Below, in pieces: positions 4,762 through 19,114 of a stretch of 64,000 nucleotides of DNA. The stretch is from a virus, in the IMG/VR virus record IMGVR_UViG_3300034073_001700, positions 32,001 to 96,000 of that record; one strand, given 5' to 3'. Made by a program: the position numbers and the translations under genes. The notes under the pieces were generated by a model. The model saw only the letters and a list, made by a program, of their open reading frames with translations, did no database searches and had not been told where the DNA came from. Position 1 is the first letter of the stretch, and each line of letters starts with the position of its first letter.

Positions 4762-5042
4762 ATGATTCTTGTACGTTAACCTCAGGTGTGTTATCTTCTT
4801 CTACAGGTGTTGATCTATGAGGATTATCACATGTACAGGCATCACAGCACCGTGGTGGGGTTTCGATTGTCTCAGTCATAGCAATCATTATAGCACCTAA
4901 TTATTATCCTTGCAGGAGCAGTTTTCACAGCATTGTTCTTGGAACATCTTTAGGGCTAAACCGTCGTTTTCTGGCCTACCCAGATCTTCCCAAAATTTTT
5001 CACGACCCATATTGTCATTTTCTGAAATTTTTTCTGATTCGC

Positions 5043-5435
5043 TCATTTTTGTTCCTTTGATATATAGATATCCTCTACCACAAAGCCATCTTCTCTATCA
5101 TATATAACCCAGTCTATAGACTTAATATCAAACCGTTCATTGAGTGCATTAAGTACCGTGAATTTATCTAGGCTACCGCATGTGTATAGGTCGAATTGTA
5201 GTAATCCTGGATCTACCTCGTCCCAGATGTGAAATGCTATATGGCTTGTCTCAATCATAACAATTGCTGTCAAACCTTTGTTTCCAGGAGCATCTACATA
5301 TGAGGCAAATGGTCCTTTGATTATTTTCATATCTACCCTGCGAACTAGGTCTTTTAAGAACTCTACCGCCTCATCCTCTGATCGGATCGGATTTGATACC
5401 TTGGCGTTTACGAGCATGTGCTTGTGGAATATCAT
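5043..5435 (-). CDS. speD: S-adenosylmethionine decarboxylase proenzyme (class 1B)
   Basis: GLTAIVMIETSHIAFHIW self-cleavage motif and DLYTCG. Confidence 0.85.
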   Translation of the reverse strand: MIFHKHMLVNAKVSNPIRSEDEAVEFLKDLVRRVDMKIIKGPFASYVDAPGNKGLTAIVMIETSHIAFHIWDEVDPGLLQFDLYTCGSLDKFTVLNALNERFDIKSIDWVIYDREDGFVVEDIYISKEQK

Positions 5436-5592
5436 GTGTTTATTATACCCTAAGTCCTTGTAGGTAGGCTAAATAGTTTAATATTAAAAATATTACCAGT
5501 ACCCCGCCTATTGTGTATTTCATAAATTCATTATACCAAAAATCTGAATTTTTTGCTGATATGCATGATGCGTGTAATTGTAATAAAAAGAT

Positions 5593-5620
5593 AAAAAAAT
5601 AGTGAGCACTTTTTGCTCAC
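5593..5620 (-). terminator. Intrinsic terminator of leftward early genes
   Basis: Minus strand gtgagc-loop-gctcac followed by T-tract. Confidence 0.65.
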
Positions 5621-5630
5621 GATCTTTTAT

Positions 5631-5819
5631 TTATTCTTTTGGCATTTTTCCAACGACCCAGCCGTTATGGATTCCGACCAGTGGGGCGTCAATACATACG
5701 GCATACCCCTGCGGCAATTTAGATGGAAAGAAAGCAATAAACTTTTCTACATGCTCTCTTGTATAAAACGGAATAGTTTTACTCTCTCCGTTAGTTGTTG
5801 TTAGTTTTACTTGTATCAT
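5631..5819 (-). CDS. Hypothetical early protein
   Basis: 62 aa ORF with AGGAG SD. Confidence 0.6.
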   Translation of the reverse strand: MIQVKLTTTNGESKTIPFYTREHVEKFIAFFPSKLPQGYAVCIDAPLVGIHNGWVVGKMPKE

Positions 5820-5914
5820 TTTTATTTTCTCCTAATTCTATTTTATCATAATGAGAGCGGTCATAGTTAGCAAGTGTGCCACCATTTTCAAGGTGGGCTT
5901 TTCTTCTTAGTTGT

Positions 5915-6040
5915 TCAGTTGAATAATTCATCTGCTACACACTCGCAAGGTTCAATCCAAAAATCGTCATTGTCTCCAATGAAGATGTAGCCTCTACCTG
6001 AGCAAGGCTGACATTCAATTGTTTTTACTGAGTTTATCAT
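5915..6040 (-). CDS. Small Zn-finger-like protein (CxxCxGRG...CxC)
   Basis: Read by eye: MINSVKTIECQPCSGRGYIFIGDNDDFWIEPCECVADELFN; GGAGG SD. Confidence 0.6.
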   Translation of the reverse strand: MINSVKTIECQPCSGRGYIFIGDNDDFWIEPCECVADELFN

Positions 6041-6186
6041 TAGCGCACCTCCATGCTATCTACTGTGTAGCCATGAGCAACAAGGCTATCCATAAGGTTA
6101 TTTATTTGATACTCATTGAGCATGAGTCTATCTTTTACTGTGATGAGGTTGCCCTCTTTTTCTACTGTGTAATTTAGTGTTAGCAT
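6040..6186 (-). CDS. Hypothetical early protein (48 aa)
   Basis: Read by eye: MLTLNYTVEKEGNLITVKDRL...; AGAAAGG SD; TAATG overlap with next gene. Confidence 0.6.
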   Translation of the reverse strand: MLTLNYTVEKEGNLITVKDRLMLNEYQINNLMDSLVAHGYTVDSMEVR

Positions 6187-6212
6187 TTTGCTACCTTTCT
6201 TTTGATAATCTT

Positions 6213-6234
6213 ATTCTATACCCTGCCACTGACA
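6213..6234 (-). promoter_or_regulatory. PafBC-type (RecA-NDp) promoter
   Basis: TGTCAG-N10-TAGAAT. Confidence 0.7.
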
Positions 6235-6273
6235 TTTTGGGGTGTCTGTGGGCTATCCCCTTTGTGATTTACC

Positions 6274-6399
6274 TCACATTGGAGGAGCGAAGATAGCGAG
6301 AAGCGTAAGTTCAATTGTGATAATTGTCACAAAAGCGACAAGCGCCCAAGGCGAATCGGAGGTGAGTAGGTCAAAAGTTTTATTCATAATGTTTTTCAT
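6274..6399 (-). CDS. Small membrane peptide (41 aa)
   Basis: Read by eye: MKNIMNKTFDLLTSDSPWALVAFVTIITIELTLLAIFAPPM; GAAAGG SD. Confidence 0.5.
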   Translation of the reverse strand: MKNIMNKTFDLLTSDSPWALVAFVTIITIELTLLAIFAPPM

Positions 6400-6431
6400 T
6401 TTTAGTTTACCTTTCATTTTGTTATAGGAGA

Positions 6432-6460
6432 ATAATAACATAATAAACTGACAAAGTCAA
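6432..6460 (-). promoter_or_regulatory. PafBC-type promoter with sigmaA -35
   Basis: TTGACT-t-TGTCAG-N10-TATTAT. Confidence 0.7.
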
Positions 6461-6465
6461 GAATA

Positions 6466-6620
6466 AACACGCCCAAGTTTTGTGGTGTTGGTCACATGTC
6501 CCAAATGTCCGATTTTGCTAGGCGATCTCCTAGCCCACGCAGTCGGGCGTGTCGCAGTGTCCGTTTTGTTACGTTTTACGTGTGATAATCCTCACAAAAA
6601 AAGTTTTTAAAATGTCCGAT
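6466..6620. promoter_or_regulatory. Divergent control centre: CRP sites, WhiA-type boxes, BldC-type repeats, inverted CCTAG pair
   Basis: TGTGA-N6-TCACA at 6581 and a near match at 6481; GGCGTGTC at 6546; TGTCCG repeats; gctagg-cgatct-cctagc at 6517-6534. Confidence 0.7.
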
Positions 6621-6637
6621 TTGTTAGCATTTTGGAT

Positions 6638-6666
6638 TTGATTTTGTCGGTCTTTTATGTTAAACT
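6638..6666 (+). promoter_or_regulatory. PafBC-type promoter (perfect consensus)
   Basis: TTGATT-t-TGTCGG-N10-TAAACT. Confidence 0.75.
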
Positions 6667-6699
6667 TACAGAGTAAGAAAATAAGAAAGGTGGTCTAAA

Positions 6700-6879
6700 A
6701 TGACTAACACTAAAATTAAAGTTAATGAGAATTATTATTCTACTAATGAAACTTTCTTTTGTTGTGATGAACAAGTAATTAAAATGTATTGCGAGCCTCA
6801 CGGCGAGGCTATGGGTTGCTACTATTGCGAGTTTGACTACACCGAGCCTTGCGAGTGTGAGCCAATTCACACAAACTAA
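6700..6879 (+). CDS. Small Cys-rich early protein (59 aa)
   Basis: Read by eye: MTNTKIKVNENYYSTNETFFCCDEQVIKMYCEPHGEAMGCYYCEFDYTEPCECEPIHTN; AGAAAGG SD. Confidence 0.6.
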   Translation: MTNTKIKVNENYYSTNETFFCCDEQVIKMYCEPHGEAMGCYYCEFDYTEPCECEPIHTN

Positions 6880-6947
6880 GTGGCGTGTCGTTTTGACTTT
6901 TGCCCTAAAAAATGAAATAATAGCAGTATAAAGAAAGGAAAACTTAA

Positions 6948-7148
6948 ATGAAATCATACTCAATTCCAGACCTTCTAATTGGTCACATCTACTACCCTTC
7001 CTCTATGGCGAGGAAATACCAATACGGCGAGATTAACTACGCCTCTAAGCGTGATGACATCTATTTATCAGAAGGCTATGAAGCCTACGCTATCCGTTTC
7101 AATGGTTGGAAATGGGCTACTATTGCGGTGAAAGTAGAGGATAACTAA
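6948..7148 (+). CDS. Hypothetical early protein
   Basis: AGAAAGGA SD, own promoter. Confidence 0.65.
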   Translation: MKSYSIPDLLIGHIYYPSSMARKYQYGEINYASKRDDIYLSEGYEAYAIRFNGWKWATIAVKVEDN

Positions 7149-7266
7149 ATGAAACTTCACGAATTCGTTGAAATGGTTGAGCGTGAGCGAGAGGCTACAC
7201 GCTTGACAAACTTAGAAAAAATCGCTAAAATTAATAATAACAATAAAGAAAAGGAAAAGAACTAAA

Positions 7267-7524
7267 ATGACTAACGCTACTTATACCGATTACCCCTTCA
7301 CCCTTAATGGTGTAAATTTTATCTCACGAGTATTTACTCACTCACACATGGCGCAAACTATTGCGAGCCTGCCTGAAGGTATCTTTGCTCAATTAAATCA
7401 AGACGCAGTTTCAGAAATTATTGGTGACCCTGCTCAATTAACTATTGAAGAATTAGAAGATGAGTTAAATAGAGTTAATGAAGGTGGCACTCATGCGTTT
7501 ATTTTGTTAGGAGAAAACGCCTAA
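7267..7524 (+). CDS. Hypothetical early protein
   Basis: AAAGGA SD; 85 aa. Confidence 0.65.
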   Translation: MTNATYTDYPFTLNGVNFISRVFTHSHMAQTIASLPEGIFAQLNQDAVSEIIGDPAQLTIEELEDELNRVNEGGTHAFILLGENA

Positions 7525-7715
7525 TGATGACACGAAAAGACTATGTAAAAACTTCAAACATCCTAAAAGGATTTGCGGATGAAATTCATCCACAAGTCTT
7601 TGAGGATTTAGTGGAAGAATTCGCTCAATACTTTCAGAGCGACAATGATAGATTTGACAAAGCAAAATTTGAAAAGGCTTGCGGTGTTGATGAGTTAGGA
7701 CTAATTCCAGTATGA
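7524..7715 (+). CDS. Hypothetical early protein
   Basis: MTRKDY...DNDRFDKAKFEKAC, a recurrent small phage family. Confidence 0.7.
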   Translation: MMTRKDYVKTSNILKGFADEIHPQVFEDLVEEFAQYFQSDNDRFDKAKFEKACGVDELGLIPV

Positions 7716-7904
7716 GAATTCTAACTACAATTGTTCAAATTGCGCTTATTGTTTCTATTTATTACACAATAAAAATTGCTAATGAAGAAAACTAAATTCG
7801 CAACATGCGAGATTTGCGGTAGAATTTTTATCGCAGATCTCAAATGCTTTGCTTGCGCTGCTAAACAAAATTAATTTAATTTTCAACAAAAACCGCCTAG
7901 GGGG

Positions 7905-7925
7905 TTATCCACAGGGTTATCCACA
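7905..7925 (+). promoter_or_regulatory. Two tandem perfect DnaA boxes
   Basis: TTATCCACA-ggg-TTATCCACA. Confidence 0.75.
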
Positions 7926-7926
7926 A

Positions 7927-8018
7927 TGTGAATTAAGACACAATTTACGTATTTTGTGAATTTCCTCACAGATTTACGGCGTGTCTGATTTGAAATTGTC
8001 AGTAGAAAATGATAGGAT
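7927..8018 (+). promoter_or_regulatory. Two CRP sites, WhiA-type box and PafBC-type promoter
   Basis: TGTGA-N6-ACACA at 7927; TGTGA-N6-TCACA at 7955; GGCGTGTC at 7978; TGTCAG-N10-TAGGAT at 7997-8018. Confidence 0.7.
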
Positions 8019-8219
8019 AAAATCCTAAAATAAAGAAAGGAAAAACTAATGAAAAAAATTGTTCTTGTTAGTTATGTTGCTGAAGCAGATACAGATGTCG
8101 CTGCTATTTTCGCTCTACGCCGTTCTCTCGCTTATTTACCTGAAAGCGAATTAGAAAAGTTTGAAGCGTTTAATGTTGTTGATTTTGAAGGTAATCAAGT
8201 AGAAGGGTTGTTGGTATAA

Positions 8220-8717
8220 ATGGGTTTGGACATGTATCTAAGTGCCCGTAAGCACGTTGAAAAAATTCAATGGGATAAACTTGATCGTGATAGCGATACA
8301 AGGTATTCTGATGCTACCGCTCCACAATGGTTTGATGTAGTCAATGCTGCTGGTGTTGCTACTCTTGTCGATAAAGAAAGTATCTATGGTGTAGATGTAT
8401 CCGTCAATGTTGCTTATTGGCGTAAGTCTAATCAGATACACAATTGGTTTGTGATTAATGTTCAGCGTGGCGAAGATGATTGCGGTGAATACTATGTATC
8501 TAATAACAAGATAAAAGAATTGTTAGATACCTGCCGTGAGGCTTTGTCTAAGAAAGACCCTAATTTGCTACCGCCACGAGAAGGATTTTTCTTTGGCTCT
8601 ACTGATGTAGATGAGTGGTATTGGGCAGACATAAAGGACACTATCAAGCAATTAGATAGGCTTGTAAGTCTACCTGATTTTGATAAACTATCGTTCTACT
8701 ATCAATCATCTTGGTAA
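8220..8717 (+). CDS. Conserved phage protein (MGLDMY...YWRK..GFFFG..YYQSSW family)
   Basis: Recognisable widespread phage family motifs. Confidence 0.75.
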   Translation: MGLDMYLSARKHVEKIQWDKLDRDSDTRYSDATAPQWFDVVNAAGVATLVDKESIYGVDVSVNVAYWRKSNQIHNWFVINVQRGEDDCGEYYVSNNKIKELLDTCREALSKKDPNLLPPREGFFFGSTDVDEWYWADIKDTIKQLDRLVSLPDFDKLSFYYQSSW

Positions 8718-8719
8718 AA

Positions 8720-8776
8720 CGGACAATTCGGACATGGTGTGTCTGATTTGATTTTGTCAGCGCACCATGATAGGAT
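8720..8776 (+). promoter_or_regulatory. BldC-type repeat, WhiA-type box and PafBC-type promoter
   Basis: CGGACAATTCGGACAT; GGTGTGTC; TTGATT-t-TGTCAG-N10-TAGGAT. Confidence 0.7.
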
Positions 8777-8802
8777 TTCAGTATTGAAAGAAAGGAAATA
8801 AA

Positions 8803-9021
8803 ATGGATAAATTGGAATACGCACTTCGTCAGATTGCTAACTGCGACCTATGCTTAGGCAGAGGTGTTGATTATTGGGCTAATGGCGAGGACTATGATTT
8901 TGAGGATTGTGTTTGTAATCCTTATGGAATTATCCTTGATGAAACTGGAGAGGTAATTTGGGATAATGGCTTATCAAGCGAGGCAGAATTATCTATCTTT
9001 GCTACTGCGGAGGCTAACTAA
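8803..9021 (+). CDS. Small Zn-finger-like protein
   Basis: CDLCLGRG...CVC; same pattern as 5915-6040. Confidence 0.65.
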   Translation: MDKLEYALRQIANCDLCLGRGVDYWANGEDYDFEDCVCNPYGIILDETGEVIWDNGLSSEAELSIFATAEAN

Positions 9022-9023
9022 TA

Positions 9024-9305
9024 ATGGGAAGTAATTTTGCTAATGATTTGGCTTTGGCTGATAATCTAACTATTGAAACTCAGATAGAGATACACTTATC
9101 TGCTAATCACTACCCGCCCGTTCCTAAGACTATGGTTCAGCCTTGTGTTGAAGCCATAGATGCGGTCAATGACTTAGGGCTATGGGATTTGGAAATACCG
9201 CTACCCGAAGGCGTGTCATGGAAAGGTTTGACAACTGCCCCTGCTCATGCCATAATTGAAGCACACCACCTAAATGCGTGGATTATTGAAAGAGAGGAAT
9301 ACTAA
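9024..9305 (+). CDS. Hypothetical early protein
   Basis: HLSANHYPPVP...HHL motifs; operonic. Confidence 0.65.
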   Translation: MGSNFANDLALADNLTIETQIEIHLSANHYPPVPKTMVQPCVEAIDAVNDLGLWDLEIPLPEGVSWKGLTTAPAHAIIEAHHLNAWIIEREEY

Positions 9306-9446
9306 AATGGCTAAAGTAAAAGAGATTTGGTCGTCTAAAATAACTTCAGACATGGTTTCTAACCTTGATGAAGATACTATTGAAGAATTAGTGGAAGCAC
9401 TAAATGATACAGTAATGGCAACCTGCGAGGATTTTGGAGTAGAATA

Positions 9447-9662
9447 ATGGAATACTTATACTCAGTAACTTGTACCTATGACGGAGAGCGCACCCCTCGT
9501 TGGGTGGGTCGTTATAGTGACGCACTATCGGCGGTAGAAACTTATCAAAAGTTTGTAGACCACGGAACTGCCTTAGAATACGCAACAATAAACTTGGCAG
9601 AGCCTAATGGAAAATTACATACCAAAAATCTCTATGCTAATGGAGAGATGAGCACTCGCTAA
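9447..9662 (+). CDS. Hypothetical early protein
   Basis: GGAG SD; operonic. Confidence 0.6.
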   Translation: MEYLYSVTCTYDGERTPRWVGRYSDALSAVETYQKFVDHGTALEYATINLAEPNGKLHTKNLYANGEMSTR

Positions 9663-9893
9663 ATGTCTGCTACAATGTTAAGCATGGAAGATTTCACTGC
9701 GGTAGACATTCTCAATGCCGACCAATTAGAAGTAGGAGATCTAATTGGTATCGGTGATGAGGTTGTAAAAGTTCTCGGTATTCAACCACTTCACTATGGA
9801 TTTAATCTTGCTATTGAAAATAATTTTGGCGAAAAAGATTTTGTTGATGTAAGCGAAGATGATAAATTTAATTTATATATAGAAAATTTCTAA
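9663..9893 (+). CDS. Hypothetical SH3-like protein
   Basis: ADQLEVGDLI beta-rich pattern. Confidence 0.55.
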   Translation: MSATMLSMEDFTAVDILNADQLEVGDLIGIGDEVVKVLGIQPLHYGFNLAIENNFGEKDFVDVSEDDKFNLYIENF

Positions 9894-9960
9894 AACCGCC
9901 TAGCCAATTCGGACATTTCGGGCATTTGCATTTTTTGTATTTTTATGATAAGATTAATTT

Positions 9961-10098
9961 ATGTTTAAGAAAACGGCTGAAGAAATTCGGAGATTACAAG
10001 ACCTCCGCAGATCTAATGCTGCCCAACCATTAAGGAACAAAAAACAATACTCTCGCAAGATTAAGCACAAAAAATTTGACTTCACAGAAAATAAATGA
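9961..10098 (+). CDS. Small basic protein (45 aa), leaderless
   Basis: Read by eye: MFKKTAEEIRRLQDLRRSNAAQPLRNKKQYSRKIKHKKFDFTENK; TAAGAT 6 nt upstream of ATG. Confidence 0.6.
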   Translation: MFKKTAEEIRRLQDLRRSNAAQPLRNKKQYSRKIKHKKFDFTENK

Positions 10099-10124
10099 TA
10101 GAATTGTAAAAAAGAAAGGACCCA

Positions 10125-10844
10125 ATGAAACTAAAACGTTCAATGGATAGGAAGGTGACTAATGCAGTCTCAAGAAATGGAAAAACCCCAACAATTGCCA
10201 ACACTTTTGGACTCCCTGCTGGAAAGGCTTTCTCGTGCCCTGGTGCCACTAACACTTGTGAGAGCGTATGCTACGCAGGAAAACTCGAAAGAGTATACAA
10301 AGGAGTAAAAGCAGTATTATTACACAATTGGGAATTACTCAAAGACGCAGACCATGACACTATGGAAGCGTTATTGCAAGATATGATTGATGATTTCAAG
10401 AAAGATTGCGATAAGCGTAATGCGCCTAAGTTATTCCGTATTCACTGGGATGGAGATTTCTTTAGTGATGAGTATGCATTCGTATGGAAGCATATCGTAC
10501 TAAATAATCCTGATGTTAAATTTTGGGTATACACTCGTGTGGCTACCGCCGCAAATATCCTAAAGGGTATTGAAAACCTATCTCTCTATTTCTCTACTGA
10601 TAAAGATAATAAAGAGATTGCTATTAGTCTTAATAAGGACAAAGGAATTAGATTAGCATACCTTGCAGATACCTTCGCAATTGGGCAGGAAGACCTAAAA
10701 GCAATGATTGGAAAAGTAGGTGCTAAGTGTCCTGAGAATAAAAAGGCTATTCCATTAATCTCACAGGCTGGCAGCGCATGCGTGTCGTGTGGCTTGTGTA
10801 TTGACGAGAAAACTGATATAGTATTCTCTGCTAAGAAAAGGTAA
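10125..10844 (+). CDS. GP88-family (radical-SAM-like) protein
   Basis: CPGAT..C...CYA, RIHWDGDFFS, WVYTR and C-terminal CVSCGLC. Confidence 0.75.
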   Translation: MKLKRSMDRKVTNAVSRNGKTPTIANTFGLPAGKAFSCPGATNTCESVCYAGKLERVYKGVKAVLLHNWELLKDADHDTMEALLQDMIDDFKKDCDKRNAPKLFRIHWDGDFFSDEYAFVWKHIVLNNPDVKFWVYTRVATAANILKGIENLSLYFSTDKDNKEIAISLNKDKGIRLAYLADTFAIGQEDLKAMIGKVGAKCPENKKAIPLISQAGSACVSCGLCIDEKTDIVFSAKKR

Positions 10845-11025
10845 ACTAAATGAAAATAATACTATTACTTGTGTGGGCATTGTTCTTGTTGTCAATATTC
10901 CATGCCCCGCTAAAGTGATCTACCTCACAAATCTCAAAATATGAGAAAATGTCAAAAATAACTTGACAAACCCAAAAATAAATGAAATAATAAATACCAT
11001 AACCGAAAACAAAGGAGAAATACAA

Positions 11026-11193
11026 ATGGCAGTATCAACAGCAACTTACAAGGTAGGCGACCTCTACACCTCACAGAAGTCAAAGGTGACAGGCACAATT
11101 ACCGAAATCAAGCCAAACAAAGACGGAAGTTCCGTTCGTGTAAAACTTGATGTCAATGGTAGCCCACGCTGGACTACTTGGACAGCAAAGTAA
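11026..11193 (+). CDS. Small SH3-like protein
   Basis: Start moved to MAVST after AAGGAG SD; YKVGDLY...VTG motif. Confidence 0.65.
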   Translation: MAVSTATYKVGDLYTSQKSKVTGTITEIKPNKDGSSVRVKLDVNGSPRWTTWTAK

Positions 11194-11210
11194 TTCTCAA
11201 TACGAGAAAT

Positions 11211-11238
11211 GTCCTGAGCATGACAACTAAAACTGCTC
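11211..11238 (+). ncRNA. Repeated pseudoknot motif, copy 1
   Basis: GTC-CTGAGCAT-GAC-AACTAAAAC-TGCTC. Confidence 0.7.
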
Positions 11239-11297
11239 AACTTGATTTTCTAACATTTTTGTGTTAGACTAAATACAACCCAAACGAAAGGATAACA

Positions 11298-11720
11298 ATG
11301 GCAAGAAATGGAAAAGCCATAAATGTCAAGATTGCTACAACCAAAGTAATCAAGGCACTTGAAACTAAGTTAGCCGAAATCAACAAGAATAAGGCTAATC
11401 AAAAAGTCAATGAGGAGAAACACTCAAAGGCTATGGAGAAGTATAATAAGGAAGTCGCTAAACTTGCGGTATCCGCTATCGCTAAGGCAACTGACTTGTC
11501 TGCTCACACTCGCTATAATGGTGAAATCGCAGTATCTTTCAACTTACCTAAAGATACTATTGAACTACCTGCTGAACCTGAAAAGGATTTTGATACCTAC
11601 CACGATTGGCAGTATCGTGAGATGATAGAGGAAATTGAGAACGCAATTCGTATTCTCAAGATGACAGATGAGGAAGTAGTTTCTACTTCTACTTACAACG
11701 CTATCGCAAGATACCTATAA
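11298..11720 (+). CDS. Hypothetical coiled-coil protein
   Basis: 140 aa; GAAAGGA SD; TTGATT/TAGACT promoter. Confidence 0.7.
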   Translation: MARNGKAINVKIATTKVIKALETKLAEINKNKANQKVNEEKHSKAMEKYNKEVAKLAVSAIAKATDLSAHTRYNGEIAVSFNLPKDTIELPAEPEKDFDTYHDWQYREMIEEIENAIRILKMTDEEVVSTSTYNAIARYL

Positions 11721-11802
11721 TTGGTTGGGGGAGGGTATTTGACTCCCCCTTCTAAAAATGCTAAAATTAAATAAATAACCCAATAAACAGAAAGGCAAGT
11801 AA

Positions 11803-11970
11803 ATGACACTCGGAGGATACACTTATCAAGTAGGAGATTTATTCACTACTTCTAAAACAGGTGTTACAGGAAGAATAAACTCTTTCACACCTATTCGTCA
11901 AAATGTAACTCGTGTAGGTCTTACACTTAGCAACGGCGCAAAGCGTTTTGCTATGGTAAAAACTTACTAA
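11803..11970 (+). CDS. Small SH3-like protein, paralog of 11026-11193
   Basis: Read by eye: MTLGGYTYQVGDLFTTSKTGVTGRINSFTP...; AGAAAGG SD. Confidence 0.65.
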   Translation: MTLGGYTYQVGDLFTTSKTGVTGRINSFTPIRQNVTRVGLTLSNGAKRFAMVKTY

Positions 11971-12123
11971 TACAATTGTGGCGGGTTTCGGGTGTGTAAT
12001 CGGAATTCCCCCCGCCACAACTAAAAACTAAATAGAATTGGGTGATCGTCTGCGTTCACGGCAAACTGCGACATAATTCATGGTTGTGTTGATCTTTTTG
12101 CGAAAGTCCCTTGACACTCCCTA

Positions 12124-12165
12124 ACGCCTGAGTATGGAGGAAATCCTTTAGCGTCTAAACTGCTC
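12124..12165 (+). ncRNA. Repeated pseudoknot motif, copy 2 (with inserted hairpin)
   Basis: ACGC-CTGAGTAT-[ggaggaaatccttta]-GCGT-CTAAAC-TGCTC. Confidence 0.6.
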
Positions 12166-12289
12166 CCCAAAAATCCCCTAGGGGGTGTGATAATAAACAC
12201 AGTCCAATATGTGAGATTATTTACGTACTCGACTTGCTTTCCCCCCTAAAAAATGTTATGATTAGATTATCTAAAGAAAGGATAACCCA

Positions 12290-12553
12290 ATGATAGCAAC
12301 CGCTATTGCTTTACAAGAAACCAGCAAAGAGGCAGTATATGATGAAACCTCAATGATGATGGCTTCTGCTTTATTTCATGGCAGACACGAGATGGATGAT
12401 GAACAATTCCAAAGAGCAATTTTTATGTATTCCGCTCACCTCTCTGCTGTTGCCACAACTCTCGCTACAAATGTCCTCTTGACAAAAGAGCAGGTAGATG
12501 AGATGATTAATACCATACAAGAAATGGAAACAATGGGAAAGGACATTGAATAA
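12290..12553 (+). CDS. Hypothetical early protein
   Basis: AGAAAGGA SD. Confidence 0.65.
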   Translation: MIATAIALQETSKEAVYDETSMMMASALFHGRHEMDDEQFQRAIFMYSAHLSAVATTLATNVLLTKEQVDEMINTIQEMETMGKDIE

Positions 12554-12999
12554 TGGAAATGACTGAAACATTAGTGCCTGAGCACTATAATCCAAATCAA
12601 TTGGTAACCTATAAGGTTATCAATAATGGTGAAACCACATATCCAACCAGCAAGGTTGTTGATATCGAATGGAAATTAGAAAGTGCACGGGCTGCAGATA
12701 GACAACTATCATCTCTAAGACTTAGTGTCAGCAACTTAGAAGACATGCTGCCCAACTGGTTAGAAAATGAACCAGATACTGGCGAGATTGTCTCTGACAT
12801 CTGTCAACTATTCGGATTCAATCCTACCAAGGATGTTGAGTTTGAGGCCACGGTAACAATTAGCGGAATCATAACTGTTCCACTTGCAGAACTAAATGAT
12901 TTTGATATTGATAGTGTTGATTTAAATATCGATGCAAATTCTTATTCACATGATGTCGATATTCAGAATGTAGAAGTCGACACAATCACAACGCTATAA
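12553..12999 (+). CDS. Hypothetical early protein
   Basis: 148 aa; TAATG overlap. Confidence 0.65.
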   Translation: MEMTETLVPEHYNPNQLVTYKVINNGETTYPTSKVVDIEWKLESARAADRQLSSLRLSVSNLEDMLPNWLENEPDTGEIVSDICQLFGFNPTKDVEFEATVTISGIITVPLAELNDFDIDSVDLNIDANSYSHDVDIQNVEVDTITTL

Positions 13000-13036
13000 T
13001 AAATTTGCGGGGTTCATGAAAGGCCCCGCAATGTAC

Positions 13037-13106
13037 GCAGCATCCCTCTTTCATCCTTTCTTATAGGGATCTGCAAGGGACCTGAGCACGTCCACGTAAA
13101 CTGCTC
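13037..13106 (+). ncRNA. Anti-SD-loop hairpin plus pseudoknot motif copy 3 (candidate sRNA)
   Basis: GCAG-c-ATCCCT[ctttcATCCTTTCTTat]AGGGAT-CTGC, then GGAC-CTGAGCAC-GTCC-ACGTAAAC-TGCTC. Confidence 0.6.
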
Positions 13107-13149
13107 CAATCAATCTCCTAGCAGGTCGATCTTGAAAAGTCAAATTTAT

Positions 13150-13206
13150 GGCGTGTCGGTGCATTAAGTAATAGGATTTGCTTTTGTCGCTGGTTTATGC
13201 TAAGAT
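13150..13206 (+). promoter_or_regulatory. WhiA-type box and PafBC-type promoter
   Basis: GGCGTGTC at 13150; TGTCGC-N10-TAAGAT at 13185-13206. Confidence 0.65.
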
Positions 13207-13233
13207 TAGTTTATCTACAGAAAGGAAATAAAA

Positions 13234-14244
13234 ATGGCTCACGAATTAGAAACGCAAAATGGCGTTGCTTCTTTCGCTTCTTTTAGAGAACCTGCTTGGC
13301 ATGGTCTTGGCACAGTTTTCACAGAAGAAAAAAATACAGCAGAAATGCTTGCTGCTGCTAATCTAAACAATTGGAATGTTAGATTGGTTGATGTTGAAAT
13401 TCCAAATACTCTTACATCAGATAAGAATTATTCTTATGTTGTAAGAACTAACCCTACCGATAAATCTCAGACCGATGTTCTCGGTGTTGTCGGTGAGCGT
13501 TATCATGTTCTACAAAATGAGGATTTATTCTCTTTTGGTGACACTATGCTTGACGGCGGTGGCCGTTGGGAAACTGCTGGCTCCATTCGTGGTGGTCGTG
13601 TAGTATTCGGCTCTCTTGCTCTTGAGCGTGAGACAATTCTTGACCCTAATGGTGTTGCGGATAAGGTAAAGACTTATCTTCTAATCAATACCTCTCATGA
13701 TGGGTCTATCGCAATTCAGGCTTCAATCACGCCCGTTCGTGTTGTATGCGCTAACACTCTCAATCTTGCGTTAGGTCGTAAGGGTAAAGGCCCTAAGCAA
13801 TCTTTCAAGATTAGACACACACAGACCGCTAACGGCAAAGTTCAAATTGCTCGTGAGGCTCTTGGTCTTGCTAATACTTACATGGACGAATTCGATAAAA
13901 TGGCTAAGGCTATGATTGAAAAAGAAATCACAGCACAGCAATTTAACGACATCGTTCTCGCTGCTTATCCTAAGCCTGACAGCGACAAGAAAATCGCTAT
14001 CACAAAATGGACTAACAAGATTGATGTTATCAATGACATCTACACAGGCCAATTTAATGGCATGATTGCTAACACCGCTTGGGGTGCGTTCAATGCGCTA
14101 ACCGAAAGATTGGATTGGCATCGTTCTGCTCGTGGTGGTAATACTGAGGCAATGCTCGCTGCTGCTTCTGGTTTTGACCCATCAATTACAGCAGAAAAAA
14201 ATCGTTTGCTAAAAGTTGTAAAAGATGTTTTAGCCGTAGCGTAA
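13234..14244 (+). CDS. DUF932 family protein (TIGR03299-like)
   Basis: MAHE..PAWHGLG, ETAGSIRGGR, SHDGS, PVRVVCANTL, RHT, TAWGAFNA. Confidence 0.9.
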   Translation: MAHELETQNGVASFASFREPAWHGLGTVFTEEKNTAEMLAAANLNNWNVRLVDVEIPNTLTSDKNYSYVVRTNPTDKSQTDVLGVVGERYHVLQNEDLFSFGDTMLDGGGRWETAGSIRGGRVVFGSLALERETILDPNGVADKVKTYLLINTSHDGSIAIQASITPVRVVCANTLNLALGRKGKGPKQSFKIRHTQTANGKVQIAREALGLANTYMDEFDKMAKAMIEKEITAQQFNDIVLAAYPKPDSDKKIAITKWTNKIDVINDIYTGQFNGMIANTAWGAFNALTERLDWHRSARGGNTEAMLAAASGFDPSITAEKNRLLKVVKDVLAVA

Positions 14245-14255
14245 TAAAATACGCA

Positions 14256-14282
14256 ACTCCTGAGCATGAGTATAAACTGCTC
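14256..14282 (+). ncRNA. Repeated pseudoknot motif, copy 4
   Basis: ACTC-CTGAGCAT-GAGT-ATAAAC-TGCTC followed by T-rich tract. Confidence 0.7.
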
Positions 14283-14633
14283 TATTTTTTATTGATCAAA
14301 AAATCGCCTAGGCAAACGGACAAATCGGACATAACATTTTTGATTTATTTTTATTACGTACGACTTGATTTTTTTGCTGGATTGTGGGATAATTAAATAT
14401 ACCCAATGAAAGGAAAATATGTTAGGCTATAAAATAACAGACATAGTAGATATGCAGATCTCTATTAATGAGGCTACTAAATATATACCCGCCGATGACC
14501 CTGAAACCAAGCGGGATCTATACAAAGCCTTTGACTTCTTACAAGGATTAATAGTAGAGGGCCACATTCAATAGTTGACATTCCCCTACATTTTTGCTAA
14601 AATTTAATTACGAACCCAATAGAAAGGCCCACG

Positions 14634-15005
14634 GTGCAAGAGCAGTTTATTGAAATGTCATTCGATGAGTGGCTTACTACATATAAACCTATACTTAATC
14701 ATATTGATAAGAATGCCTCATTCCAATCAGATGACGGAGGCATAATGTTTGAAACCTATGGTGATGAGGTAGAGTTTGTTAAGTCTCAGCCGCCTGCCAA
14801 TATATGGACATACGGTGACGGTGACATGGGTGTAGGCTATATTTGGTCTGGTTGGTCCTTTGTTAACAGGATTGGTTATTTTATTACTGAGGTACCGTGC
14901 CCTGAAAATACTATTATTCAAATACAACTTGACGAATTCCCCGAAGAATGCGATACTTGTGGGGTATTCATTTATAACGAGGAGGACGACCATGAGTGCG
15001 AGTAA
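14634..15005 (+). CDS. Hypothetical early protein
   Basis: FETYG...VNRIGYFITE family motif; AGAAAGG SD. Confidence 0.65.
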   Translation: MQEQFIEMSFDEWLTTYKPILNHIDKNASFQSDDGGIMFETYGDEVEFVKSQPPANIWTYGDGDMGVGYIWSGWSFVNRIGYFITEVPCPENTIIQIQLDEFPEECDTCGVFIYNEEDDHECE

Positions 15006-15210
15006 TTACTTGCTTGAATATATGAAGATACATCTTGTTAGTTTGGAGCAAGACCAAGCAGATGTAGCAGAACAAATGGAGGCACTTGACCCTAATAGCA
15101 AAGACTATCAAGAGTTAGACTTCGAGTATAACTGGCTTGCTGGTCAGATTATTGCTACCCGTCATTTTATAGAGATTGCAGAAGGAGCAGAGTATGAAGC
15201 CAAAGCCTAA
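14992..15210 (+). CDS. Hypothetical early protein
   Basis: Start moved to MSASNY after GGAGG SD. Confidence 0.55.
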   Translation: MSASNYLLEYMKIHLVSLEQDQADVAEQMEALDPNSKDYQELDFEYNWLAGQIIATRHFIEIAEGAEYEAKA

Positions 15211-15481
15211 TGAGTTACCAGATAATCTAATTAAGTCTGTCCAAGCAGGTGTATCAGGTCTTGATATTATCCATGGTGAACTTAAGAACTGGATGTATGA
15301 AACAGAACAAGAACTAAATCCATTGCTGCAGCAATCAGAAGAGATTGGCTCAGATGAAGACTACTCAGATACAGAAGATAGACTATGGCTGTCAGGGTAT
15401 ATGGAGGCACTTGCAGATGTATACAATTTGACATATCAACTCTCATTTGCTATTATGGACAAGGAAAAGGAGCAAGAATGA
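15194..15481 (+). CDS. Hypothetical early protein
   Basis: Start moved to MKPKP after AAGGAG SD. Confidence 0.55.
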   Translation: MKPKPNELPDNLIKSVQAGVSGLDIIHGELKNWMYETEQELNPLLQQSEEIGSDEDYSDTEDRLWLSGYMEALADVYNLTYQLSFAIMDKEKEQE

Positions 15482-15822
15482 TTAAAGTAGATAACCTACA
15501 ATTAGTTGGCGAGTTTAATGTAGATAGCGGACAGGCTATCATTGGTGACCCATGCTATTTAGATAGTTGGAAGCCTTGGAATCAGGATACTGGTGAGGAG
15601 TTTGACGAGTATAAGAACCGTCAAGGCGAATACGGATATCTTGGTGCTTGTGAGGCTACCATTAGCAAAGGTCATGGCACATTAGGCATGGGAAGCGCAG
15701 TTGCTATTAGCACAGGCTATGGTGACGGTGTCTATCCAGTCTATGCACAACTTAATGATGATAACAGGGTAGCCCTTGTTGTTATCGATTTCACTGGCGA
15801 GTATCTAACAGAGGATAATTAA
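15478..15822 (+). CDS. DUF4241-like protein
   Basis: VDSGQAIIGDPCY and STGYGDGVYPV motifs. Confidence 0.65.
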   Translation: MIKVDNLQLVGEFNVDSGQAIIGDPCYLDSWKPWNQDTGEEFDEYKNRQGEYGYLGACEATISKGHGTLGMGSAVAISTGYGDGVYPVYAQLNDDNRVALVVIDFTGEYLTEDN

Positions 15823-15823
15823 T

Positions 15824-16180
15824 ATGGGAGCACGTTGTACATTCGTTTTTAAACAGTCCAAAAACCAGGCTGTGGCCTTATACAGTCACTGGGGTGAGGA
15901 TACCATGTATGAAGACCTGGCAGCAGCATTACAGCATGCAGCGCCACGTAAGGGTGATGAGTCATACTACACCCGCATGGCTGTTAGTTACCTCCTGAAG
16001 GACGACCTTCTGGATGAGTTACACTACGGTCTCTATGCATGCAATCCCAAAGACCTTGGATTCATGGACCACCCAATCGTAATCGACTTAACTGACAGTA
16101 CTGTTACAGATGACACTGGTACCCACAGTATTGATGAATTTATTAATTACCATGGCTTAGTGGCGACGGCCACTTCATAA
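15824..16180 (+). CDS. Hypothetical early protein
   Basis: MGAR...LYSHWG phage family motif. Confidence 0.65.
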   Translation: MGARCTFVFKQSKNQAVALYSHWGEDTMYEDLAAALQHAAPRKGDESYYTRMAVSYLLKDDLLDELHYGLYACNPKDLGFMDHPIVIDLTDSTVTDDTGTHSIDEFINYHGLVATATS

Positions 16181-16270
16181 AAGAGGGTTGGGTCCCCTCT
16201 TCAATGGGGCGTGAGTAACTTGCCACTTGCGCCCCTCTATCTTTTTTGATACAATCCAATAGGAGGAACT

Positions 16271-16516
16271 ATGAGTTATAGAATTAGAAGCAAACCTGAG
16301 AATACCAAAGAAATAGCATACGCAGGTAGATTTGCCAAATTGCTTACTGAGGACATGGGGCTCAATTTGGAGGCTGTTGGCTTTCACATTGTCCGTAATC
16401 ACCCTGTCATTGTGGCACGGCGTTTAGATGTCATGGCCTTGACAGCAGGCGAGGAGTATGATAAACTTATGGTAGAGTATTTAGGAGAAAATCATGCCAA
16501 TCAGTATGTCAGATAA
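16271..16516 (+). CDS. Hypothetical protein
   Basis: AGGAGG SD. Confidence 0.6.
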   Translation: MSYRIRSKPENTKEIAYAGRFAKLLTEDMGLNLEAVGFHIVRNHPVIVARRLDVMALTAGEEYDKLMVEYLGENHANQYVR

Positions 16517-16781
16517 ATGTGGGATCTTGGGTCAGTTCTGGTTTCAGTTCAGAGATGACGAAAATCTCAAGAGTTTCATTGAGTATAACGATGTTGGTCT
16601 GCCATTAGGATGGTTTATTGCTTCTGGTTTGGTAACTGGCAGTGATCTGGCTGATGACTACATTATTGAAACCTTCAATCATTTTCTTGCTGCCTTAGAG
16701 GTAACAGAGGAAGAGGTTGAGGGTGCTACTAATCTTGATGAAGTCCTTGCTATCGTAGCAGAGAAAAAAGAAGAACTATAA
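16494..16781 (+). CDS. Hypothetical protein
   Basis: AGGAG SD; FIEYNDVGLPL motif. Confidence 0.6.
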   Translation: MPISMSDKCGILGQFWFQFRDDENLKSFIEYNDVGLPLGWFIASGLVTGSDLADDYIIETFNHFLAALEVTEEEVEGATNLDEVLAIVAEKKEEL

Positions 16782-17108
16782 AAATCTCAGCCCTAACGGG
16801 CGCCTAGAGGATATTTGTATATAAAACCATCAAACCATTTTTACGAATGTATTACGAACCATTACCAAATTTTTCCTGAAAGTTTATTACGATCCAAACC
16901 ATAATATCCCCAAACCTTCTATCATAATATTTTTGTTTTGTCAAACCATCAAACCATAGTGTATGATTGTATCTCTATGTATTGTACTAGATGTATTACG
17001 ATCTCTTCTTCTATACCCCGCCGTTTTTGCGGGGGCTTTTAAAAAAGATTAAGAACGCCGATTTCTTCCCCCCCTCAGAAGTTATCAAACCAGGGTTATA
17101 ATGTATAT

Positions 17109-17303
17109 ATGAGTCCAGGACGCTTTAGCCAACTATCAAAAGAAGAATGGAAAGCATTTGATAAGGATATGAAGGTTTTGACGGGTATGTTATATACCGT
17201 TACTACTTGGCCATTGAAGCCCTTTATTCCTGCCCTGCGAAAAAAGGCGGGGACAGATAAAAAACATTACGAACCTCTATATAATCCCCCTATAGATCAA
17301 TAA
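17109..17303 (+). CDS. Hypothetical protein, leaderless
   Basis: TATAAT 6 nt before ATG; embedded in the repeat tract. Confidence 0.45.
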   Translation: MSPGRFSQLSKEEWKAFDKDMKVLTGMLYTVTTWPLKPFIPALRKKAGTDKKHYEPLYNPPIDQ

Positions 17304-17586
17304 CAAACCATATTTCCTGGTTTTCTGGTTTTTTAAAACATTTTAAAAAGTATTACGAACTTATTGGAATTTTTCCTGGATATTTGGCAATTTTCATCCA
17401 AAAATAGATTACGAGCCTATTGACAAACCATGGTTTTGGATGTATAATGCCCAAACCTTGATACAATGGTTTGACAGATATGGGGGATATGTGGTATAAG
17501 GATACAATGGTTTGGGATATAGGGTTTGATAGATAGATCAATTTGTCCCCGCCCATTACGAGCCGCCCTATAGAAAACGTTCCATC

Positions 17587-17612
17587 CTCCACTATCCTCC
17601 ACTTCACTCCAC
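17587..17612 (-). promoter_or_regulatory. MraZ-type operator (3 x GTGGAG, 10-bp period)
   Basis: Minus strand GTGGAG-tgaa-GTGGAG-gata-GTGGAG. Confidence 0.65.
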
Positions 17613-17697
17613 TTTACGACTATATAGAAATAATATCAGTAAGATTTTTATATTACCAATAGTTGACAATTACTTATCAAAATGGTATTCTTTTTAT

Positions 17698-18075
17698 ATG
17701 GAAAACATAGACTTTGGATCATTTGATATAACATTTTCTAACATAATGTTCTATTTAGGCGCATTATTATTTTTTTATTTTGCATTTATTTCAAAAGCAA
17801 ATGATTGGTCCACCCTAAAGGGATTTGGAAGATTTTGTGTATCTGCTTGGACCATAGCCTCATTGATTAAATTAATAAGAACTCAGACAACAGTCATAGA
17901 TGTTATAGATTGGACCCTTATTATGTTTATGGCCTCTTACTTAGTAGCAATTATATTTAAGGCTATACATAAAACTGCTGTAGAGAATGCTGAAGAACAG
18001 TTAAAAATATTAGAACAAGAAGAGGCAGATAAAGAACTAATTCGGCAGGCTGCTAAAAAGATTATTCAAGGATAA
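17698..18075 (+). CDS. Membrane protein
   Basis: Three hydrophobic segments; leaderless TTGACA/TATTCT promoter. Confidence 0.65.
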   Translation: MENIDFGSFDITFSNIMFYLGALLFFYFAFISKANDWSTLKGFGRFCVSAWTIASLIKLIRTQTTVIDVIDWTLIMFMASYLVAIIFKAIHKTAVENAEEQLKILEQEEADKELIRQAAKKIIQG

Positions 18076-18128
18076 ACCTGTGGATAAACATACTTGCCAA
18101 ACCTCTGTATTCATGGTATCCTGAAAGA

Positions 18129-18569
18129 ATGAACAAACCATTTAGCCCTACCCTATATGCCATAAATGATGATGCCAAGGTCTTGGTCATTGACTATCTA
18201 CAAGCGAATGGATTTTTGGCAAAGGTAAATCCAGATGACTATGGCATTGATCTGTTAGCCAAACATATTGAAACTAACAATAGGTATGAATTTGAGGTAG
18301 AGGTTAAGCATAACTGGAAGGGTGAAAGGTTTCAGTATCCAACCCTACATTTTCCAGGTAGAAAACAAAAGTTTATTAAGAATTCTCCACATACAGTATT
18401 CTTTATCTTAAATCACGAAAGAACTCATGCATATTGGGTAGATGGAACAACCCTATCTACTTGTCCCATAGTTACTAAAAATACAATCTATACCAAGAAT
18501 GAGCAGTTTATCGAGGTATCCATAAACAAATGCAAACTTATAGATTTGAGTAAAAATCTAACACTTTAA
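18129..18569 (+). CDS. PD-(D/E)XK nuclease-like protein
   Basis: YGIDL...EVEVK motif. Confidence 0.65.
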   Translation: MNKPFSPTLYAINDDAKVLVIDYLQANGFLAKVNPDDYGIDLLAKHIETNNRYEFEVEVKHNWKGERFQYPTLHFPGRKQKFIKNSPHTVFFILNHERTHAYWVDGTTLSTCPIVTKNTIYTKNEQFIEVSINKCKLIDLSKNLTL

Positions 18570-18586
18570 CAGGTTATAATGGGTGT

Positions 18587-19114
18587 ATGGATATCGAAAC
18601 CATAAAAAACGCAGGGTACATAGTAAAACCAAATCACTTTGAGGTCAAAACCGATTGGCCAACAGTATTAGACCTTATATACAAAAACTCAGACAATACC
18701 AAGACTAATGGTAGAGACCTGTGGATAAAGATAAAAGATCGTAGACCATTTGGCCACATACCTGACCTTAGAGATTTTTGTCATCAATTAAATAAAGACT
18801 TTGAATCAAAATATATTGAAGGCTGTGACTTTAACAAAGATTGGGACAAACCATGTAGTTGTTTTGGTATCTGGCATATAGATGGACCAGTTGTATCTTT
18901 GTCCAATATCCACATAAGCAAGCATAAGGATATTAAAATAGCAGCCTATATTCAAATCTTGGGAAACTCTTTTTGGAAACTTAATGATAACAAAACCATA
19001 ACCCTAAAGCCATCTGATGTTATTTTTCTAAATAAGGATATAGAACATGAGGTTTGGGGAGAAGGTCCAAGGTTTGGTGTATTGTTGTTTGCTATGGATA
19101 AGAAGACTAAGTAA
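18587..19114 (+). CDS. Cupin/JmjC-like protein
   Basis: HKD...IQILGNSFW...LKPSDVIFL...HEV. Confidence 0.6.
   Translation: MDIETIKNAGYIVKPNHFEVKTDWPTVLDLIYKNSDNTKTNGRDLWIKIKDRRPFGHIPDLRDFCHQLNKDFESKYIEGCDFNKDWDKPCSCFGIWHIDGPVVSLSNIHISKHKDIKIAAYIQILGNSFWKLNDNKTITLKPSDVIFLNKDIEHEVWGEGPRFGVLLFAMDKKTK

Follow-up and report, generated by a model that had tools for sequence, protein, structure and literature searches.

We propose that a block of small phage genes is probably driven by composite promoters, built from words that resemble the binding sites of host regulators and read by the host's regulators themselves. The block lies at positions 6187-17697 of a 64,000-nucleotide stretch (here called the window), which comprises bases 32001-96000 of the IMG/VR virus record IMGVR_UViG_3300034073_001700; the record is 120,142 bp long, has terminal repeats and is rated 100% complete. 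Within these positions, the annotated sequence reads as some 35 small genes interspersed with 16 non-coding blocks of at least 40 nt. We suspect that the region serves to control the phage's small, probably early, genes. PafBC, activated by single-stranded DNA, would adapt sigma A to a -26 element; WhiA, together with a WhiB-family partner that could be the host's or the phage's own, would bind an GACACGCC box just upstream of the -35 position; Crp would act from a class-I-like position; and BldC and DnaA would modulate. The phage would in this way make these genes responsive to DNA damage or replication stress, to cyclic AMP (cAMP) and to the cell cycle.

Results

A class of -26/-10 promoters

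Two classes of promoter are found in the region, ordinary sigma70-type promoters and a second class, which we call -26/-10, with the form TGTC(A/G)(G/C)-N10-TAnnnT, or TGTCRS-N10-TAnnnT (Table 1). The pattern occurs eight times in the genome, and six of these copies, all between 6213 and 13206, lie about 35-40 nt upstream of a strong ribosome-binding site of the AGAAAGGA type, a kind of site that precedes nearly all of the small genes. The DUF932 gene of the region has 448 relatives in a viral contig collection, from which we took a sample of 80 loci (1,297,532 bp; 34-39% guanine plus cytosine [GC]). The spacing is sharply defined: TGTCRS-Nk-TAnnnT yields 284 unique gene-strand instances at k = 10 and between 4 and 67 at the other values of k from 5 to 16. 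Five relatives rated 100% complete hold 7, 10, 15, 12 and 9 matches, against 1, 2, 3, 3 and 2 in the reversed control, and the matches fall mostly in one block of 7-10 kb per genome. Upstream of the DUF932 gene, 62 distinct sequences share a footprint of TTGTCAG, TGnTAnnnT, the ribosome-binding site and an upstream TGTC(C/G)G core, the last of which is AATGTCCGnTTT in most relatives and GGCGTGTCGG in this phage.

Hexamers resembling a -35 element lie 17 nt from the -10 in the copies at 7997 (TTGAAA), 8755 (TTGATT), 6453 (TTGACT) and 13185 (TTGCTT), and those at 6645 and 6234 have none. In the promoters at 7990-8018 and 8748-8776 the distance is exactly 17 nt and a WhiA-type box is present at -47 to -40; because these two -26/-10 promoters also carry the hexamer (TTGAAA, TTGATT), they may be readable in two modes.

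The pattern equals the PafBC consensus in both word and spacing, and we predict that these promoters depend on PafBC. The consensus described in vivo, tGTCgg(N10)tA(N3)T, joins a -26 element to the -10, with PafBC situated between sigma A region 4 and the DNA (PMC8635444). The PafBC-dependent (RecA-NDp) promoters of mycobacteria, which are read by "sigma adaptation" (PMC8635444; PMC11804915), have the same bipartite word, with a conserved GTC at -28 to -23, a -10 and a sharply fixed spacing. The phage copies differ in that they precede small genes of no assigned function, in that several keep a -35-like hexamer, and in a -26 word that is mostly TGTCAG, followed by a C-rich spacer and an extended -10. 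The middle promoters of bacteriophage T4, whose "sigma appropriation" by MotA/AsiA is mentioned in the first of these sources (PMC8635444), offer a phage parallel: a word near -30 takes the place of the -35, and an adaptor seated on sigma region 4 recognises it. The T4 adaptors are encoded by the phage, whereas here no such protein is recognisable and the adaptor would come from the host. Among the published matches listed, we found no description of phage promoters of the PafBC or WhiA/WhiB kind.

Layers of sites upstream of the core promoters

Other words stand in layers above the promoter cores. As a measure we used the promoter-upstream share, that is, the fraction of unique instances lying 25-160 nt upstream of an open reading frame (ORF) led by a ribosome-binding site, for which the background is 0.068. 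The -26/-10 element has a share of 0.53 and peaks 20-39 nt from the ribosome-binding site. Farther out come GGCGTGTC, the WhiA-type box (share 0.40; 43 of 87 instances at 50-59 nt), the BldC-type unit GTCCGnWWW (0.38; peak at 70-79 nt), the CRP palindrome TGTGA-N6-TCACA (0.35 per strand; peak at 70-89 nt) and the DnaA box TTATCCACA (0.30; peak at 110-129 nt), so that these four kinds of site are position-locked upstream of ribosome-binding sites at 4-8 times the background rate. No such enrichment is seen for an MraZ-type triple (0.03) or for the repeat ATTACGA (0.04).

Distances between the layers are narrow as well. Of 55 unique pairs of GGCGTGTC and TTGTCR in the relatives, 24 have GGCGTGTC starting 17-18 nt ahead of TTGTCR. 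The CRP palindromes begin 41-53 nt before TTGTCR, which itself begins 34-43 nt before the ribosome-binding site. Within the window, three of the six intergenic GGYGTGTC boxes place the WhiA-type box at about -47 to -39, and three of six CRP-type sites, the one-mismatch site included, have their centres near -62.5 or -64.5, with others sometimes at -77 or -85; tandem TTATCCACA boxes form the outermost layer. Since the sites keep fixed distances and a fixed orientation upstream of ribosome-binding sites, we interpret them as a composite promoter architecture and not as a free-standing decoy array.

Enrichment and conservation of the words

Counts in the 120,142-bp genome were compared with those expected from 200 dinucleotide shuffles of it. 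TGTGA-N6-TCACA was observed five times, with 0.16 expected, and all five copies lie within 6263-7955. GGCGTGTC was observed six times (0.52 expected), five of them in the region and every one on the plus strand, and TTATCCACA eight times (1.63 expected), two of them in the region and 12 nt apart; ATTACGA reached 28 copies against 10.2. As plain hexamers, CGGACA (19 vs 16) and GTGGAG (42 vs 32) are not enriched. Their arrays are nevertheless real: CGGACA-type 9-bp tandems occupy 8716-8733 and 9906-9923, and in the relatives pairs of GTGGAG number 76 at a spacing of N4 and 0-4 at each other spacing from N0 to N11.

A preliminary description of this DNA had proposed that its intergenic blocks are tiled with operators of host master regulators. 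The motifs are present where that description placed them, and three classes (the CRP palindrome, GGCGTGTC and TTATCCACA) exceed the composition-matched shuffles. Conservation in related phages, which the description had put forward as a check, holds for the same three: the 80 related loci contain 287 CRP palindromes, 269 copies of GGCGTGTC and 289 of TTATCCACA, together with 255 of TTGTCR-N11-TAnnnT. The claim that most blocks combine several motifs needs to be narrowed. Ten of the 16 blocks hold at least one regulator-type motif, but only five or six combine two or more types, a number that rises to about 9-10 if CCTAG and TTACGT are added. TTACGT had been listed as a site and is not above chance (25 observed, 30 expected). 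It was also said that many blocks open with CCTAG, and seven of the 16 do contain it, as (C)GCCTAG at their heads (6529, 7896, 9899, 12177, 13117, 14307 and 16803), but CCTAG itself is depleted 2.4-fold genome-wide (66 vs 159). The longer word CGCCTAG shows a mild excess (9 vs 3.4), and in the relatives (C)GCCTAG is followed by BldC-type repeats at 12-13 nt or by DnaA boxes at 11 nt.

An unbiased ranking of 8-mers in the relatives puts GCGTGTCG/GGCGTGTC first, with AATGTCCG, CTGTGGAT and TCCTCCAC also high; CCTGAGCA/AACTGCTC, ATTACGAA and CAAACC[AT]T rank high too and were not among the motifs listed in the preliminary description. No LexA box was found in the phage genome, and TCGAAC-N4-GTTCGA is absent from the 80 related loci. 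Rfam gave no match at E values up to 0.1 in positions 5000-19000, and no transcript record was listed for positions 6200-16199.

Correspondence with published regulator sites

The five perfect copies of TGTGA-N6-TCACA, which we take to be the CRP consensus of Mycobacterium tuberculosis, include sites that match the class-I type of CRP geometry (near -61.5 and -71.5). This word is the consensus of Escherichia coli, and a "palindromic consensus" is stated for M. tuberculosis (PMC4117774).

The WhiA-type box GGCGTGTC is the exact reverse complement of GACACGCC, the motif derived for M. tuberculosis from chromatin immunoprecipitation sequencing (ChIP-seq) and IDAP-seq of WhiA and ChIP-seq of WhiB2; an earlier data set gave CGACACGCCGn, and both proteins bind the recA promoter (PMC13473873). 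In Streptomyces venezuelae, WhiA reads GACAC and is linked by WhiB to region 4 of sigma A, immediately upstream of the -35 (PMC10243135). With the WhiA/WhiB promoters treated in these reports (sepX of S. venezuelae, PMC10243135; recA, dnaE1, dnaB and sepF of M. tuberculosis, PMC13473873), the phage promoters share the identical 8-bp GACACGCC, the position of the word (extended, cGACACGCCg) just upstream of the -35 region, and the availability of a WhiB-family protein. The WhiB here, unlike theirs, is phage-encoded and divergent, with WhiB1 as its closest solved relative, and its pairing with WhiA is putative.

BldC is described as binding head-to-tail 9-bp repeats, AATTxxxx(C), and its whiI site contains GTCCGAATT (PMC5859096). 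The 9-bp AATTCGGAC repeats of the phage fit this operator form, and the unit AATTCGGAC also occurs within the whiI site (PMC5859096). MraZ is described as binding three GTGG[A/T]G boxes separated by 4-nt spacers, a triple reported in Bacillus subtilis only at Pmra (bioRxiv 10.1101/2022.02.09.479790), and the phage triple of GTGGAG with 4-nt spacers is the same binding repeat.

Regulators encoded by the phage

A six-frame Pfam search of the whole phage genome was positive for Whib, a marker of actinobacteria and their phages; the solved chains closest to the protein are WhiB1 (E 5e-7) and S. venezuelae WhiB (E 1.3e-4). The same searches found none of WYL, HTH_Crp_2, Sigma70_r4, MerR_1, MraZ and Bac_DnaA_C, and HTH_17 gave a sub-threshold match only, outside the window. 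Of ten genes behind promoters that were compared with PHROGs, seven have no family and three belong to families of unknown function.

Relatives of the phage and a stand-in for its host

DnaE and the DUF932 protein are nearest to those of large Streptomyces phages of the Stanwilliamsviridae (such as BillNye, NootNoot and Bmoc), at 52-55% identity. In Stanwilliamsviridae phages the DUF932 gene occurs at two places per record, about 1-2.5 kb from the end, and it is because of this position near the record ends that we call the small-gene block probably early. No match was obtained when the region was compared with the phage collection by megablast. The GC content of the phage genome is about 37%, and we had taken this low value as an argument against an actinobacterial host; we dropped that argument after the matches of DnaE and DUF932 to Streptomyces phages and the WhiB match. 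Two other pointers to the host failed. A scan of genome contigs with the phage KatG returned 59-65% identity to many phyla and hence no answer, and the phage WhiB matched 401 of 401 genomes of the class Actinomycetes (a sample that included ten unpublished genomes, on which none of our conclusions depends) at 30-47% identity, without lineage signal.

As a stand-in for the host we used a family of small actinobacterial genomes drawn from the class-wide sample, together with one complete member, G406 (1,223,088 bp, 42.4% GC). A tandem WYL pair (PafB/PafC-like), WhiA and MraZ are each present in 15 of 15 genomes of this family, and a Crp-type helix-turn-helix exceeds the cut-off in 14 of 15. The Crp of G406 has a recognition helix identical to that of M. 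tuberculosis CRP, and its BldC orthologue matches PDB entry 6AMA with an E value of 2.9e-25. A predicted complex of the phage WhiB with the WhiA of G406 received a score of 0.00, which counts neither for nor against a pairing. As an observation apart, GTGA-N6-TCAC is depleted in G406 (4 vs 22.7).

The words of the phage recur in this lineage. Upstream of recA, 10 of 13 genomes carry GCGTGTC; of the ten loci with an SOS box, eight have the word 14-38 nt from it. TGTCAG-N10-TAnnnT precedes repair-type genes, once fused to an SOS box. The mraZ promoters of the 15 genomes carry GTGGAG/GTGGGG arrays with a 10-bp period, the same unit and period as in the phage triple. TTATCCACA flanks dnaA in G406, with 4 of the genome's 13 perfect boxes placed there, and the lineage uses the 9-mer at oriC. 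At the recA loci we also noticed that the spacing between the WhiA-type GCGTGTC and the SOS box falls into two classes, which differ by about one helical turn.

Table 1. Promoters, candidate regulator sites and related features (positions in the window)
Feature	Position	Strand	Remarks
-26/-10 (PafBC-type) promoter	6213-6234	-	TGTCAGTGGCAGGGTATAGAAT, followed by ribosome-binding site and ATG; leftward gene ending at 6186
Perfect CRP-type palindrome	6263-6278		centre about -64.5 from the leftward promoter (calculated)
Perfect CRP-type palindrome	6316-6331		inside a 41-codon leftward ORF, distant from core promoters
-26/-10 promoter	6432-6453	-	leftward small membrane-type gene; TTGACT at -35
Three BldC-type units	6507-6622	-	AAATCGGAC, AAAACGGAC, AAATCGGAC; divergent block
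WhiA-type box GGCGTGTC	6546-6553	+	divergent block, distal from both promoters
Perfect CRP-type palindrome	6581-6596		centre about -84.5 from the promoter at 6645
-26/-10 promoter	6645-6666	+	TGTCGGTCTTTTATGTTAAACT; gene 6700-6879
CRP palindrome and WhiA-type box	6856-6889	+	palindrome 6856-6871; box 6882-6889 (about -46 to -39); ahead of sigma70-type promoter 6893-6921
Tandem DnaA boxes TTATCCACA	7905-7925	+	starts at 7905 and 7917, 12 nt apart
Full cassette, gene 8049	7955-8018	+	CRP palindrome, centre about -62.5
Inner parts of the gene 8049 cassette			WhiA-type box 7978-7985 (-47 to -40); -26/-10 promoter 7997-8018, -35-like TTGAAA
Cassette, gene 8803	8716-8776	+	BldC-type tandem 8716-8733; GGTGTGTC 8736-8743 (-47 to -40); -26/-10 promoter 8755-8776
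CCTAG head and BldC-type 9-bp tandem	9899-9923	+	AATTCGGAC ATTTCGGGC; tandem 9906-9923
CRP-type site, one mismatch	10914-10929		upstream of sigma70 promoter 10963-10991
WhiA-type box and -26/-10 promoter	13150-13206	+	box 13150-13157, promoter 13185-13206; DUF932 gene
CCTAG head and BldC-type units	14307-14330	+	CAAACGGAC, AAATCGGAC
The six -26/-10 promoters, start positions	6645, 7997, 8755, 13185	+
The six -26/-10 promoters, start positions	6453, 6234	-
Sigma70-type promoters	10076-10104, 10963-10991, 11739-11767, 14575-14603, 17420-17448		examples
ATTACGA and CAAACC[AT]T repeat field	16782-17697	+	mostly non-coding; outside promoter cassettes; perfect sigma70 promoter 17420-17448
MraZ-type triple	17587-17612	-	GTGGAG-tgaa-GTGGAG-gata-GTGGAG
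WhiB-family (Wbl) protein, 93 aa	40954-41235	-	Pfam Whib, 45.9 bits, E 9.8e-13

Discussion

The preliminary description survives in part. Its assignment of motifs to WhiA, PafBC, BldC and MraZ, a prediction made from sequence, agrees with published sites as cited above and with the occurrence of the same words in the stand-in lineage. Its statement that, of these regulators, only a WhiB partner is encoded can be extended from the window to the whole genome, where Whib was found and WYL, Crp, sigma, MerR, MraZ and DnaA domains were not. Absence of the regulators from the host lineage, which it had named as a ground for giving up its interpretation, is not what we see in the stand-in family, which encodes all of them, with a WYL pair, Crp, WhiA, MraZ, BldC and DnaA. 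What finds no support is the titration of host factors as the function of the whole set, the idea that the DnaA sites have no role in cis, given that TTATCCACA peaks upstream of ribosome-binding sites, and TTACGT. Its remark that the MraZ site has no obvious cis role is borne out by the triple's promoter-upstream share, which lies below background.

Several points weigh against our proposal of composite promoters read by host regulators. The stand-in family was picked for small genomes and low GC and not for a link between phage and host. Within G406, there are no perfect CRP palindromes and 12 with one mismatch, of which one is intergenic; there is thus no sign in this lineage of a CRP regulon built on the consensus. 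Nor do GGCGTGTC (4 vs 6.5) and the -26/-10 pattern (15 vs 19.9) exceed expectation across that genome, only their intergenic share being above it. The -26/-10 class is missing from two relatives in culture, BillNye and NootNoot (11 and 20 matches, against 18 and 14 in the control, with no N10 peak), and we therefore regard the class as a trait of the low-GC metagenomic clade. PafBC promoters are by definition without a -35, and since several phage copies carry a -35-like hexamer, those copies might simply be sigma70 promoters whose spacer holds a conserved word. The sites at 6316, 6546 and 9210 are far from any core promoter. Two GGYGTGTC contexts, at 6544-6563 and 8728-8746, can alternatively be folded into stems with a T-run behind them; a terminator scan lists both, and each comes directly after a gene. 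Finally, for some 30 small early proteins there is no Pfam family, and the words could in truth be bound by these.

A bolder version of our proposal, which we consider unlikely, is a switch with two keys. Phage DNA ends or replication intermediates would activate PafBC, which would fire the -26/-10 promoters; the phage WhiB would capture WhiA at the GACACGCC boxes and so divert it from host division and replication genes; and the MraZ triple would soak up the repressor of the division operon as the genome multiplies. Host cell-cycle circuitry would then be both read and rewired by a phage with almost no regulators of its own.

If the small proteins just mentioned are themselves regulators, the words could be their operators, and likeness to host sites would be convergence or coincidence. 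We hold this to be quite unlikely, even though nearly all of the roughly 38 ORFs scanned are without a Pfam family and seven of ten without a PHROGs family, the stand-in genome G406 is devoid of perfect CRP palindromes, and ATTACGA, the most abundant repeat, matches no host factor known to us and looks phage-specific. Five independent word classes match a published consensus, as far as the cited accounts give it, in sequence and in spacing, and the same words stand at recA, mraZ and oriC of the stand-in lineage; moreover, the six-frame searches of the phage genome revealed no CRP, WYL, MerR, MraZ, DnaA or sigma domain.

Chromosomal loci such as datA of E. coli can serve for titration. The sites of the phage could act likewise, as clusters able to sequester a factor, and would then mainly titrate host regulators as phage DNA multiplies, disturbing replication, division and the damage response. 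Set against the whole 1.22-Mb genome of G406, the phage is indeed rich in sites, with five perfect CRP sites to none, six copies of GGCGTGTC to four, and six promoter-placed -26/-10 elements to six intergenic ones, and the MraZ triple is of a kind reported in B. subtilis only at Pmra (bioRxiv 10.1101/2022.02.09.479790) and is not associated with promoters here. Yet a sponge has no need of the fixed distances and orientation kept by the CRP, WhiA, BldC-type and DnaA boxes, and the phage, unlike datA-type loci, has few sites per factor (in the region, a single MraZ array and a single pair of DnaA boxes), position-locked to promoters except for the free-standing triple. Titrating MraZ, a repressor, would presumably raise expression of the division operon and not stall division. 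As an account of the whole set, we judge titration very unlikely; a decoy role is left to the MraZ triple alone, and there as a side effect of copy number.

Hardly credible, in our view, is a role at the RNA level, in which pairs of CGGACA/TGTCYG, or of GGCGTGTC and GTGTCCG, would form hairpins that end the upstream transcript: the two stem contexts noted above would suit terminators, but the words are conserved as sequence and not as pairs, GGCGTGTC mostly lacks a complementary partner (as at 7978, 6882 and 13150), the relatives keep the TGTC core while its flanks change, and Rfam offers no match.

There are known cases of phages with a promoter that draws on one host factor. If our proposal of composite promoters read by host regulators is right, a promoter vocabulary copied from several host master regulators would represent a new degree of dependence on the state of the host, the more striking in a lineage whose genomes are very small and hold few regulators. 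The sigma adaptation of PafBC and the co-activation by WhiA/WhiB would gain a role in infection, and the phage sites would provide natural, compact, high-affinity test sites for these factors. Such control could also be part of the way in which abundant phages of lakes time their infection of hosts that grow slowly.

The MraZ triple and the repeat field

The MraZ triple, found once each in 42 of the 80 related loci, and the field of ATTACGA and CAAACC[AT]T repeats form an element separate from the promoter cassettes. At Pmra, as described, there are the same three boxes with 4-nt spacers (bioRxiv 10.1101/2022.02.09.479790); the phage array, in contrast, is overlapped by no core promoter; it is embedded in a field of non-coding repeats and faces away from the gene next to it. 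The field (16782-17697) contains about nine ATTACGA and ten CAAACC[AT]T copies, and the promoter within it is a perfect TTGACA-17-TATAAT (17420-17448); in the relatives, ATTACGA has a preferred spacing of 34-36 nt. We had considered ATTACGA as an operator overlapping start sites, prompted by the copy at 14607, and abandoned the idea, as there is no promoter association across the family. The ATTACGA field could be (i) an origin, (ii) iterons or (iii) the sites of a phage regulator.

Other features of the window

Several genes of the region are followed by a 3'-end element, CCTGAGCA...AAACTGCTC (11213-11238, 12127-12165, 13081-13106 and 14259-14282), which has no Rfam match; its two words rank second among the enriched 8-mers and are present in 79-80 of the 80 related loci. 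The gene at 11298-11720 weakly resembles the RegB endoribonuclease of T4 (E 0.005, below the cut-off), and the early genes share one ribosome-site word. Outside the region, the window encodes host-like metabolic genes, namely a KatG-type peroxidase (29058-31142), a tryptophan halogenase (38027-39577, minus strand), a carbamoyltransferase (34639-36060, minus strand) and an S-adenosylmethionine decarboxylase (5043-5435, minus strand). The gene at 17698-18075, immediately after the repeat field, looks leaderless: its -10, TATTCT, ends at 17691, and the ATG follows 7 nt on.

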